Shown here: piece by piece, positions 309-1,192 of the stretch
Numbering within the stretch: position 1 is the stretch's first letter
How the letters are laid out: the number at the start of each line of letters is the position of its first letter
Source: a virus
Direction: 5' to 3' (one strand)
Length of the DNA: 26,000 nt
Virus genome (UHGV): UHGV-0185509
Translations under genes and position numbers: made by a program
Notes under the pieces: generated by a model
The model's database searches: none
Told to the model about the DNA's origin: nothing
What the model saw: the letters and a program-made list of their open reading frames with translations, nothing else

Positions 309-477
309 TCCATCCCAATCCCTTCAATACCAGAAAGAAAGCGTCGAGCGAGCTTTAACGTGCGCTAACTGCGGTCAGAAGCTGCATGTGCTGGAAGTTC
401 ACGTATGCTCCGATTGCTGCGCAGAGCTGATGAGCGATCCGAATAGCTCAATGTACGAGGAAGAAGACGATGAATGA
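301..477 (+). CDS. ninF: NinF-like zinc-binding protein
   Basis: Internal ATG at 301 yields a 58-aa protein ([54 protein letters not shown]) matching my recollection of lambda NinF, including the CxxC...C..CC motif. Confidence 0.75.
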
Positions 478-1192
478 GTTAATAAATGGCAATGCCATCA
501 AAATGACAAGCATTGAAATCGCTGAGTTGGTGGGTAAGCGTCATGACAATGTGAAACGTACCATCGAAACGCTGGCTAAAAATGGTGTTATCCGGCTTCC
601 TCAAATTGAGGTTTCCGAAAGAATCAATAACTTAGGGTTCAGTGTTCAGTACGAGCATTACGTCTTCGAGGGCGAACAAGGTAAGCGAGACAGTATTGTC
701 GTTGTTGCCCAGTTGTCGCCAGAGTTCACCGCTCGTCTTGTTGACCGTTGGCGAGAGCTTGAAGAAACTGCGGTTAATATCCCAAAAACGTTACCGGAAG
801 CGTTGCGCCTTGCTGCTGATCTTGCTGAGCAGAAAATGCAACTGGAAAACCAGCTCGCAATTGCCGCACCTAAAGTTGAGTTTGCCGATCGCGTTGGCGA
901 GGCCAGCGGAATTTTGATTGGAAACTTTGCAAAGGTTGTTGGTATTGGTCCAAACAAACTGTTTGCGTGGATGCGCGATCACAAAATCCTTATTGCTTCA
1001 GGTTCCCGGCGCAATGTGCCAATGCAGGAATATATGGATCGCGGCTATTTCACAGTGAAAGAAACAGCGGTCAACACAAATCACGGAATACAGATATCGT
1101 TCACCACAAAAATCACCGGGCGTGGTCAACAGTGGCTGACCAGAAAGCTGCTCGATAACGGAATGCTGAAAGTAACCGGGGAGGCTGCTTAA
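470..1192 (+). CDS. phage antirepressor-like protein, Rha N-terminal domain fused to ANT/KilAC C-terminal domain
   Basis: 240 aa; N-terminus (MTSIEIAELVGKRHDNVKRTIETL) resembles the phage regulatory protein Rha family, C-terminal half resembles the AntA/AntB (KilAC) antirepressor domain; ATG at 470 overlaps the NinF stop. Confidence 0.7.
   Translation: MNELINGNAIKMTSIEIAELVGKRHDNVKRTIETLAKNGVIRLPQIEVSERINNLGFSVQYEHYVFEGEQGKRDSIVVVAQLSPEFTARLVDRWRELEETAVNIPKTLPEALRLAADLAEQKMQLENQLAIAAPKVEFADRVGEASGILIGNFAKVVGIGPNKLFAWMRDHKILIASGSRRNVPMQEYMDRGYFTVKETAVNTNHGIQISFTTKITGRGQQWLTRKLLDNGMLKVTGEAA

Follow-up and report, generated by a model that had tools for sequence, protein, structure and literature searches.

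What does a gene that joins a Rha-type domain to an ANT/KilAC domain do inside a phage nin region, and does its product act against a repressor? The question arises from a 26-kb stretch of viral DNA (the window, meaning the whole stretch analysed), in which a first-pass annotation had proposed an antirepressor-like protein encoded between ninF and the ybcO-rusA pair. The 240-aa open reading frame is intact, and Pfam matches to its neighbours bear out its location:

301–477, + strand: ninF (Pfam NinF), 58 aa when started at the ATG at 301, matching the annotation of L001 and CUS-3
470–1192, + strand: roi coding sequence, 240 aa, ATG start and TAA stop (ORF list and sequence)
1192–1482, + strand: ybcO/hkbD (Pfam YbcO)
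1479–1841, + strand: rusA (Pfam RusA)
1838–2026: ninH, neighbour downstream of rusA (Pfam search)
2023–2541: Q, neighbour downstream of ninH (Pfam search)

Judged by sequence comparison, the gene at 470–1192 is almost certainly roi, a long-known nin-region gene first described in HK022. The HK022 Roi protein and the window protein are identical at 212 of 241 positions (88%; E 6e-159), and identity is complete over the C-terminal 170 aa, including the ANT/KilAC part (100%). CUS-3 Roi shows 98% amino acid identity, and annotated genes in several E. coli genomes match the window gene at 100% DNA identity. Orthologues carry the annotation 'roi' in HK97, HK620, CUS-3, HK75 and Stx phages, and the gene was found in about 1110 of 5426 complete E. 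coli genomes, or about a fifth. The gene call is not new: roi is already known and very common in lambda-like phages. Gene order in the window, ninF-roi-hkbD-rusA-ninH-Q, is that of HK022, CUS-3, HK97 and HK620, the last of which had been suggested earlier for comparison.

At its start codon roi overlaps the stop of ninF (ATGAATGA), and at its stop codon the start of ybcO (TAATG); these overlaps place roi inside the nin operon, translationally coupled to ninF upstream and to ybcO/hkbD downstream. It belongs to the delayed-early rightward transcription unit ninF-roi-ybcO-rusA-ninH-Q. The first-pass annotation had also put the gene at the place where lambda carries ninG, but ninG lies directly downstream of roi in L086, L087, PA18, WGPS6, YYZ-2008 and ST2-8624. 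This adjacency identifies the ybcO-rusA pair as the alternative to lambda ninG and roi as a separate insertable module; a role for roi as a stand-in for ninG is ruled out by the side-by-side arrangement in these phages.

Domain searches and structural modelling divide the protein into two parts joined by a helix:

503–766, + strand: N-terminal Rha-type domain, predicted winged helix-turn-helix, aa 12–99 (Pfam Phage_pRha)
542–580, + strand: predicted recognition helix, aa 25–37, RHDNVKRTIETLA; second helix of the helix-turn-helix in the AF2 model
791–865, + strand: long linker helix joining both domains, aa 108–132 (AF2 model)
845–1153, + strand: C-terminal ANT/KilAC domain, aa 126–228 (Pfam PF03374)

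Both halves of the proposed fusion scored above their Pfam cut-offs, Phage_pRha (PF09669) at aa 12–99 with the full profile covered (36.3 bits vs 29.9; E 8.6e-9) and ANT/KilAC (PF03374) at aa 126–228 (113.5 bits vs 25.3; E 7.7e-33). The AF2 model used was built on an 82-sequence alignment; a single-sequence model reached a pLDDT of only 40. In this model the Roi N terminus is predicted to form a Rha-type, MerR-like winged helix-turn-helix connected by the long helix to KilAC, and the KilAC domain shows a second helix-turn-helix-like pair (helices 150–157 and 161–170) and a beta-hairpin (194–215). Foldseek comparison of the model with the PDB gave no match at E <= 1e-3, PDB sequence searches with the Roi protein and with a 14-sequence profile gave no real match, and NCBIfam and PADLOC searches with Roi gave none.

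The C-terminal domain is the basis for reading Roi as an antirepressor, which would inactivate its own CI-type repressor, the repressor of a co-resident prophage or Mnt, and so cause induction or interfere with the lysogeny of others. ANT/KilAC is named after P1 Ant1 and KilA, and PHROG 63, labelled 'anti-repressor Ant', matches Roi at E 1e-98. In addition, a P22-Ant-type gene adjoins roi in several Stx phages (PMC3430580), and in ASU11 and Stx1_EH1995 cI and cro have a Rha-domain relative as immediate neighbour. However, the activity reported for Roi is DNA binding, and a literature search returned no report of Roi binding or inactivating a repressor protein. Roi has no similarity to P22 Ant and does not contain its P22_AR_N/C domains, and the authors of the work on the KilAC protein AriS call the exact function of such 'antirepressor' domains unclear (PMC9043618).

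The position of the gene also argues against this reading. Expression of an antirepressor should escape the prophage's own repressor, as from a LexA- or Mnt/Arc-type promoter of its own, and roi appears to possess no such promoter: no promoter-like site was detected upstream of it on the + strand in a scan of positions 1–2100, and no LexA box in the whole window. Since roi is translationally coupled within the PR-driven nin operon, its product would appear only once the prophage repressor has ceased to act, and a gene so placed is in the wrong position to induce its own prophage. The possible target Mnt is encoded far away:

20143–20403, − strand: orphan mnt (Pfam Arc and Repressor_Mnt; sequence)

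This gene is real and orphan, as had been noted. It sits between the last ejection-protein gene, which ends at 20125, and the tailspike gene (20539–22401); arc and ant, the partners of mnt in the P22 immI module mnt-arc-ant, are absent beside it and from the window. It lies about 19 kb from roi in another operon, and the orphan arrangement is independent of any particular roi allele: an mnt-only mnt-tailspike junction recurs independently in Sf101 and IME10. Conversely, HK022 and HK97 carry roi at this same place and are to our knowledge siphoviruses without an immI region. The functional link between roi and mnt that had been raised earlier is thus unsupported. From the antirepressor-like description, the domains and the database label stand; the gene is roi, for which no repressor target has been reported and neither a promoter-like site nor a LexA box was detected. 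We regard repressor inactivation by Roi as highly improbable. The usual 'antirepressor' label of roi exceeds what is known, and the finding is best filed as Roi rather than as a new antirepressor, with no demonstrated tie to mnt.

In 1996 Clerget and Boccard reportedly found that Roi of HK022 binds DNA sequence-specifically within roi itself, adjacent to an IHF site, that IHF stabilises this binding, and that Roi inhibits lytic growth in IHF-defective hosts. Their Roi paper, J Bacteriol 178:4077, is cited in PMC3430580 and PMC4587872. The part of the window gene that encodes the recognition helix and wing contains the following elements:

532–660, unstranded: hypervariable segment of roi, aa about 22–63, covering recognition helix and wing (DNA and protein alignments)
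593–617, unstranded: 25-bp dyad-symmetric element (12+1+12, centre 605), candidate Roi binding site
599–611, unstranded: perfect 13-bp dyad core, CCTCAAATTGAGG, within the 25-bp dyad
622–634, + strand: IHF core, consensus WATCAANNNNTTR, perfect match AATCAATAACTTA, 10 nt downstream of the dyad core

E. coli roi alleles are nearly invariant outside aa about 22–63, both in DNA alignments with HK022 and CUS-3 and in the protein alignment of alleles, and the recognition helix (aa 25–37) is the most variable helix between alleles. For a broader comparison, 21 non-redundant alleles were collected by tblastn of phage records and look-ups of the encoding contigs; they come from E. coli, Cronobacter, Klebsiella, Pseudomonas, Vibrio (including lytic ICP1), Pantoea, Edwardsiella and Oceanimonas. 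Two other scans added little diversity: IMG/VR searched with the Roi protein returned only alleles that are 98–100% identical, and genome contigs searched with over-specific N-terminal patterns yielded just 4 loci.

The dyad codes for aa 42–50, which form the loop behind the recognition helix together with the first strand of the wing. Nine of the 12 pairs are symmetric in the window, and 19 of the 21 diverse alleles have 8–12 symmetric pairs out of 12, against a background with a mean of 3.0 and P(>=9) = 0.0007. In all 19 the dyad falls at homologous codons; the two alleles with low scores are LLS (5/12) and V. metschnikovii (7/12). Symmetry is kept by at least nine different dyad sequences; for this, changes on one arm must be compensated on the other. 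Pairing dips at positions 6–8 and drops to background past position 12. When codons for identical amino acids were compared between distant homologues, synonymous differences were found at 1 of 36 sites inside the dyad vs 372 of 618 (60%) elsewhere (Fisher P = 9e-13). This test is more informative than within-gene shuffling of synonymous codons, which gave modest per-allele P values of 0.001–0.24, and about 1 for two alleles with an imperfect core. The dyad is single-copy, and no further perfect copy was found in the window, in any of the fetched loci, in the whole 40.7-kb prophage carrying this allele, or in the HK022 genome. A general repeat search of roi gave nothing notable, its seed and length settings having missed the dyad. 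The HK022 genome contains 6 one-mismatch 11-mers of the dyad vs 2.0 expected, an excess that we judge too weak to interpret.

The inner half-site of the dyad follows the residues that come after 'VK' in the recognition helix: RT, which is R30/T31 in the window protein, goes with CTCAA, V or I with CTGCA, QS with CCCCA, and RS with (G/T)CCA. This matching holds across wing types and hosts, while the two outer arms match one another and follow wing type. Stx1_EH1995 is an exception, with a KRT helix and a somewhat different inner half-site, CCACAG. Helix and dyad are about 30–60 nt apart, so part of the association could be plain linkage. We found no earlier description of this covariation in the literature. 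HK022 illustrates the pattern: its recognition helix and wing (aa 22–63) belong to a different allele, and its inner dyad, at HK022 positions 34785–34795, is CTGCA-T-TGCAG compared with CCTCAA-A-TTGAGG in the window; a different DNA-binding specificity is therefore predicted for the two proteins. The dyads of HK022 and of allele-B are CTGCATTGCAG and CCCCCAATGGTGG. Taken at the sequence level, the dyad at 593–617 is probably the cognate site of the Roi N-domain.

Nucleotide-level selection does not itself tell a DNA from an RNA reading, and the dyad could alternatively be an mRNA hairpin that influences pausing, processing or translation, or a site for some other protein, with Roi binding elsewhere. 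Long versions of the dyad do fold stably as RNA (z = -3.6 in Stx1_EH1995 and -6.5 in GRNsp50), but folding is marginal in the window (z = -1.65) and negligible in HK022, the phage studied experimentally (-3.9 kcal/mol, z = -0.06). A one-base centre is present in 21/21 alleles, which leaves no room for an RNA loop unless inner pairs are opened, and G.T or T.G combinations make up only 12 of 98 mismatches. The dip at positions 6–8, together with the two contact zones, fits protein-DNA recognition, and the inner arms change in step with the recognition helix. Based on these patterns, we think it improbable that the dyad is something other than a Roi site, and recognition of the dyad by Roi is the preferred reading.

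The predicted IHF site in roi is called purely by its match to the consensus. It codes for the wing turn (R)INNL, and the 26-kb window has just 2 matches in all. HK022 roi carries a core at the same aligned position, HK022 34807–34819, the sole match in 4.7 kb, and cores are also present in alleles B and E, in ASU11 and in the V. metschnikovii homologue. Many alleles with the dyad lack the core, which points to an involvement of IHF specific to some alleles.

On the observed identity, domain structure, dyad, IHF core and their conservation we base the following explanation, to which as a whole we assign a probability of about 0.6: Roi is a self-targeted, probably autoregulatory winged-helix regulator with a KilAC effector domain. 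We infer both the use of the dyad as the Roi site and the role of KilAC as effector. The winged helix of Roi, probably as a dimer, would bind the 25-bp dyad at 593–617 inside roi, and IHF on the neighbouring core at 622–634 would bend the DNA and stabilise the complex. This single intragenic complex would limit the production or activity of Roi, through autoregulation or as a transcriptional roadblock. Autoregulation may be the outcome of self-binding, with chances a little short of even, and is one possible outcome among others. In hosts that lack IHF, control would fail and Roi would block lytic growth, most likely via the KilAC domain.

How KilAC might exert such an effect is suggested by AriS of Listeria phage phi10403S, which was annotated as an antirepressor and found to act otherwise, its KilAC domain inhibiting the SOS response (PMC9043618). 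By analogy, Roi could be a dual regulator in which KilAC acts on a host protein, by RecA/SOS damping or a division block, and the Rha domain tunes phage genes, aligning co-resident prophages. Roi (pRha and KilAC) fits the architecture of the AriS-like family, which combines a pRha, Bro-N or AntA/B N terminus with a C-terminal KilAC (PMC9043618). KilAC alone is bacteriostatic and division-inhibiting: the single-domain toxin CreP inhibits cell division (bioRxiv 10.1101/2024.01.05.574328), and phi11 Gp07 makes cells filament through its C-terminal domain (PMC5944126). Moreover, the KilAC half is nearly invariant in E. coli alleles while the DNA-binding part diversifies, as expected if a conserved host target is contacted. 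On the other hand, the functional data all come from only distantly related proteins of Firmicutes or Acinetobacter, and the likeness is one of domain architecture. The characterised AriS has an AntA/AntB N-domain, in contrast to the pRha of Roi, and a Gram-positive host, and no intragenic operator has been described for it, whereas roi has a candidate one. The KilAC model also has a helix-turn-helix-like helix pair, so KilAC may bind DNA as well. An AriS-like action of Roi is therefore a tentative reading that we consider rather unlikely. Self-binding fits with it equally, the main difference being the role of the effector domain.

Among other relatives, P1 KilA/Ant1, phi11 Gp07 and CreP have KilAC in common with Roi, with inhibition of growth or division in Gp07 and CreP, but their N-domain differs or is absent (KilA-N, Bro-N, none). 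We know of no IHF connection for KilA, Ant1, Gp07 or CreP. Rha of P22 (orf201) and of phi80 share the N-terminal Phage_pRha with Roi, and as for Roi, growth inhibition in IHF-defective hosts has been reported for them, the P22 rha product inhibiting phage growth there (PMC4936722). The P22 protein differs in its C terminus, an ORF11CD3 domain instead of KilAC, and its gene belongs to the late operon, where it is flanked by the lysis genes and gene 3, a slot filled in the window by a KilA-N protein. P22 rha showed no clear 12+1+12 dyad; its homologous 'KINNLG' codons do hold the 13-bp IHF core, AATCAATAACTTA, letter for letter.

A broader idea, whose chances we see as evenly balanced, is that Rha/Roi-type regulators may carry their own operator in the coding sequence, in the form of a 25-bp dyad that overlaps codons downstream of the recognition helix. 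The helix and the inner half-site would then evolve jointly, forming a compact specificity cassette (RT/CTCAA, V/I/CTGCA, QS/CCCCA, RS/GCCA) kept in phages that range from E. coli lambdoid prophages to those of Pseudomonas and lytic ICP1, and one sub-class would be joined to an embedded IHF site common to roi and P22 rha. If true, Roi proteins would fall into discrete 'specificity types' with a simple, readable recognition code, and the 30-year-old IHF phenotypes of Rha and Roi would gain a mechanistic basis in self-binding control that needs IHF. The cassette would also explain why hypervariability is confined to one small segment while the remainder of the gene is frozen. Given the dyad and the way it covaries with the helix, the vague question of what Roi and Rha do can be put as specific, cheap experiments. 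Because roi is upstream of Q, the cassette, if it holds, may bear on the timing of Stx phage induction. In some Stx phages roi is dispensable: the gene carries IS629 insertions (PMC4587872), and roi of Stx1_120412 has a premature stop.

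The gene at 470–1192 is, with near certainty, roi, which is already known and very common.

470–1192, + strand: roi, intact open reading frame from ATG to TAA, 240 aa

The ninF stop overlaps the roi start and the roi stop overlaps the ybcO start, which embeds roi wholly in the nin operon; its neighbours by Pfam are NinF, YbcO, RusA, NinH and the Q antiterminator. The first-pass annotation had thus accurately placed a 240-aa gene in the nin region, and the two domains it proposed both exceed their Pfam cut-offs: Phage_pRha at residues 12–99 (36.3 bits vs. 29.9) and ANT/KilAC at residues 126–228 (113.5 bits vs. 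25.3). Roi also matches PHROG 63, 'anti-repressor Ant', at 1e-98. The window belongs to an E. coli prophage of P22-like (Lederbergvirus-type) organization; its gene content includes lysis genes, terminase, portal, coat and ejection proteins, followed by mnt, the tailspike and gtrABC. Its nin segment shares 94–98% DNA identity with HK629, CUS-3, HK75, HK620, HK97, HK022 and many Stx phages, where the gene is annotated as roi or 'DNA-binding protein Roi'. At the protein level Roi is 98% identical to its CUS-3 counterpart and 88% identical to that of HK022, including an identical C-terminal 170 residues. roi DNA is present in 1110 of 5426 complete E. coli genomes, several times at 100% identity.

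In 1996, Clerget and Boccard reportedly described Roi as a helix-turn-helix DNA-binding protein that recognizes a site within the roi gene, in close linkage with an IHF site, and whose binding is stabilized by IHF. Roi is also said by them to prevent lytic growth of HK022 on IHF-defective hosts, and its C-terminal half to be similar to P1 Ant1 and KilA. PMC3430580 and PMC4587872 both cite their paper (J Bacteriol 178:4077). Some Stx phages carry a broken roi, so the gene is dispensable for prophage maintenance: IS629 insertions interrupt it in O157 Stx2a phages (PMC4587872), and in Stx1_120412 (compared locus L095, 1201–1335) a premature stop follows 44 codons.

An AF2 model built from 82 homologues (mean pLDDT 72, about 80 inside domains) predicts an N-domain with a strand (residues 11–13), helices at 14–21 and 25–37, a beta-hairpin (45–52/58–67) and further helices as far as residue 103. 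A long linker helix (108–132) is followed by a C-domain containing an HTH-like helix pair (150–157, 161–170), a beta-hairpin (194–215) and a last helix. E. coli Roi variants are near-identical outside residues ~22–63, the predicted recognition helix and wing, of which there are at least 5 distinct versions in E. coli; a broader survey of phage records and genomes yielded 21 non-redundant versions of roi. Some recorded variants are longer and may be gene-call fusions or true recombinants. P0001 and P0002 (304 aa) have a second Rha-like N-terminal segment, P0006 and P0007 have a NinB-like N-terminal part replacing the first ~20 Roi residues, and P0234 (331 aa) combines YbcO, Rha and KilAC domains.

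Just 3′ of the recognition-helix codons, roi alleles show mirror symmetry about one central base. The centre falls at the same aligned codon, 21 nt past the first base of the G39-equivalent codon, plus or minus one codon.

593–617, inside roi: full dyad, 12 pairs per side, 9/12 paired in the window
599–611, inside roi: perfect dyad core, CCTCAA-A-TTGAGG

Scores over the 12 pairs are 8–12 in 19 of the 21 alleles, the exceptions being LLS with 5/12 and V. metschnikovii with 7/12. For the remaining centres of these genes the mean is 3.0 (sd 1.5), and scores of ≥8 or ≥9 have probabilities of 0.0034 and 0.0007, respectively. From the centre outward, 18, 21, 20, 20, 18, 14, 11, 12, 15, 18, 19 and 16 of the 21 alleles are paired, and past position 12 pairing drops to 8, 6 and 1, a profile that indicates defined ends and two well-paired zones with a dip between them. 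At least 9 different dyad sequences retain the symmetry, so changes on one arm must have been matched on the other. Among distant homologues, synonymous differences at codons for identical amino acids number 1/36 inside the dyad and 372/618 elsewhere (Fisher P = 9e-13, with overlapping and hence not fully independent pairs), so selection acts on nucleotides and not on protein alone. We favour the dyad as the cognate site of the Roi N-domain, with a probability of roughly 0.6.

The inner half-site tracks the helix residues just past the conserved 'VK'. KRT helices occur with CTCAA (the window, Cronobacter ENT47670, Klebsiella P18-100, V. metschnikovii, Oceanisphaera), K(V/I)S or RVT helices with CTGCA (HK022, allele E, Pseudomonas phage Hali, a Vibrio prophage), KQS helices with CCCCA (alleles B and D, Oceanimonas, lytic vibriophage ICP1) and KRS helices with (G/T)CCA (ASU11, LLS, PdC23, pVa-1); Edwardsiella phage GF-2, with a KVS helix, has the related half-site CGCA. 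The outer arms pair mutually and track wing type, GCTTTT/AAAAGC accompanying 'EKPTAGRP' wings and CGGAAA/TTTCCG accompanying '(S/F)EKINNLG' wings. The left outer arm sits between the helix codons and the inner dyad, yet it follows the wing, and such interleaved covariation is not produced by simple linkage blocks. The pattern fits a dimeric winged helix in which the helix would read the inner zone and the wing the outer zone. Stx1_EH1995 (locus L102) is an exception, with a KRT helix but the inner half-site CCACAG; its dyad position is a perfect 25-bp palindrome. In YYZ-2008 the inner zone is degenerate and the overall score is still 9/12. The alternative that the dyad is an RNA hairpin or another protein's site is disfavoured by its single-base centre and its covariation with the recognition helix. 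G.T mismatches are also scarce (12/98), and the RNA folding signal is near zero in HK022 (z = −0.06) and weak in the window (z = −1.65).

ASU11 and Stx1_EH1995 encode relatives of Roi that have the Rha domain but a C-terminus other than KilAC; these lie directly after cro/cII, beside cI, and are followed by another 'antirepressor' gene.

ASU11 (locus L101), 1234–1908: Rha-domain relative of Roi
Stx1_EH1995 (locus L102), 1201–1908: Rha-domain relative of Roi

Further copies of the dyad were found neither in the window, nor in the compared loci, nor in the whole 40.7-kb prophage carrying the window's allele, and in the HK022 genome the perfect 11-mer of the dyad core is confined to roi. By this search, the only high-grade target of Roi seems to be its own gene. 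One-mismatch copies of the HK022 core CTGCANTGCAG are commoner in that genome (L117) than expected, with 7 sites including the perfect one vs. 2.0 expected, a count that 1/100 shuffles reached; they include positions 21010, 31234, 31327 and 33662, among others, and two are in gene P. The only other dyad-core-like sequence in the 26 kb, CCTAAAGTTGAGT at 869–881, lies within roi at the start of the KilAC domain. It has 3 mismatches to the dyad core, or 1 to CTCAANTTGAG, and could be coincidental or act as a weak secondary site. Another perfect palindrome (6+1+6), ATGGCA-A-TGCCAT, occupies 486–498 (roi codons 6–10); alleles A, B and C share it unchanged, and those with 'NSNAIK' have lost it.

The IHF core consensus searched, WATCAANNNNTTR, has 2 matches in the window, one of them beside the dyad.

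622–634, inside roi: candidate IHF core AATCAATAACTTA, consensus match, 10 nt past the dyad core

This placement corresponds to the close linkage of Roi and IHF sites reportedly stated in 1996. In HK022, the sole match in 4.7 kb is at the aligned position in roi, an island of identity amid a diverged segment. The core recurs in alleles B and E, ASU11 and a V. metschnikovii homologue, always on codons ATC AAT (AAC or GAT) TTA, and is absent from alleles with 'EKPTAGRP'-type wings. P22 rha carries the same 13-mer on its homologous 'KINNLG' codons, and its product causes the same growth inhibition in IHF-defective hosts as Roi (PMC4936722); one embedded candidate IHF site would thus be common to both classical IHF phenotypes. 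The operator geometry of P22 rha may differ: upstream of its core (locus L119, 1310–1345), CGCA-TTTT-TGCG and two direct TTTCCG repeats stand where roi has its 12+1+12 dyad.

In the model we propose, a dimer of the Roi N-domain would occupy the dyad, IHF at the neighbouring core would bend the DNA and stabilize the complex, and the complex would keep Roi expression or activity in check. Where IHF is absent, control would be lost and Roi would block lytic growth, most likely via its KilAC domain. Three links in this model are inferences: that Roi binds the dyad, that the binding leads to autoregulation, and that KilAC is the effector; autoregulation as the outcome of self-binding is tentative, with slightly less than an even chance. 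Related KilAC domains inhibit the SOS response in AriS (PMC9043618) and cell division in phi11 Gp07 (PMC5944126), as does the KilAC protein CreP (bioRxiv 10.1101/2024.01.05.574328). It is plausible that the Roi C-domain is an AriS-like SOS or division inhibitor, a role compatible with self-binding. The conserved, co-varying intragenic dyad, and the IHF core held in common with P22 rha, give this family, functionally vague since the 1990s, a model that is concrete and can be tested.

The gene had also been framed as an antirepressor, for which the family label is the sole argument. No report of antirepressor activity of Roi was found in the literature, and no promoter-like site or LexA box belonging to roi was found. 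Roi would therefore be made only once PR is derepressed, an operon position ill-suited to an antirepressor acting on its own prophage, and the proposal is not supported. The orphan mnt noted alongside it does exist, but nothing connects it to roi.

20143–20403, − strand: mnt homologue, Arc and Repressor_Mnt domains, without arc or ant

HK022 and HK97, siphoviruses not known to have immI, carry roi in the same slot. mnt directly faces the tailspike gene across a spacer of ~135 bp, in which no inverted repeat was found. Shigella phage Sf101 (92% identity) and IME10 have this same junction, likewise lacking arc and ant. Nor does roi take lambda's ninG position, as had been thought, since it lies directly upstream of ninG in L086/L087 (two compared loci), PA18, WGPS6, YYZ-2008 and ST2-8624; the ybcO–rusA pair is the alternative resolvase module and roi an independent insert.

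Other features of the window are as follows.

2519–2548, + strand: strong sigma-70-like site TTGACA-18-CATAAT (11/12), across the end of Q (stop 2541)
2605–2679, + strand: tRNA-Asn(GTT), phage-borne
2685–2760, + strand: tRNA-Thr(TGT), phage-borne
4566–5096, + strand: KilA-N domain protein, 176 aa, between lysis cassette and terminase genes
22483–24006, − strand: gtrC, GtrII-type, O-antigen glucosylation cassette
24024–24935, − strand: gtrB, same cassette
24932–25294, − strand: gtrA, same cassette

The sigma-70-like site is where a PR′-type late promoter is expected, and the two tRNA genes lie between the Q gene/late promoter region and the holin gene. The KilA-N gene is, besides roi, a second regulator-like accessory gene of the element; its product had no match in NCBIfam or PADLOC, and its slot holds rha in P22. 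The gtr cassette (22483–25294) is downstream of the tailspike gene.
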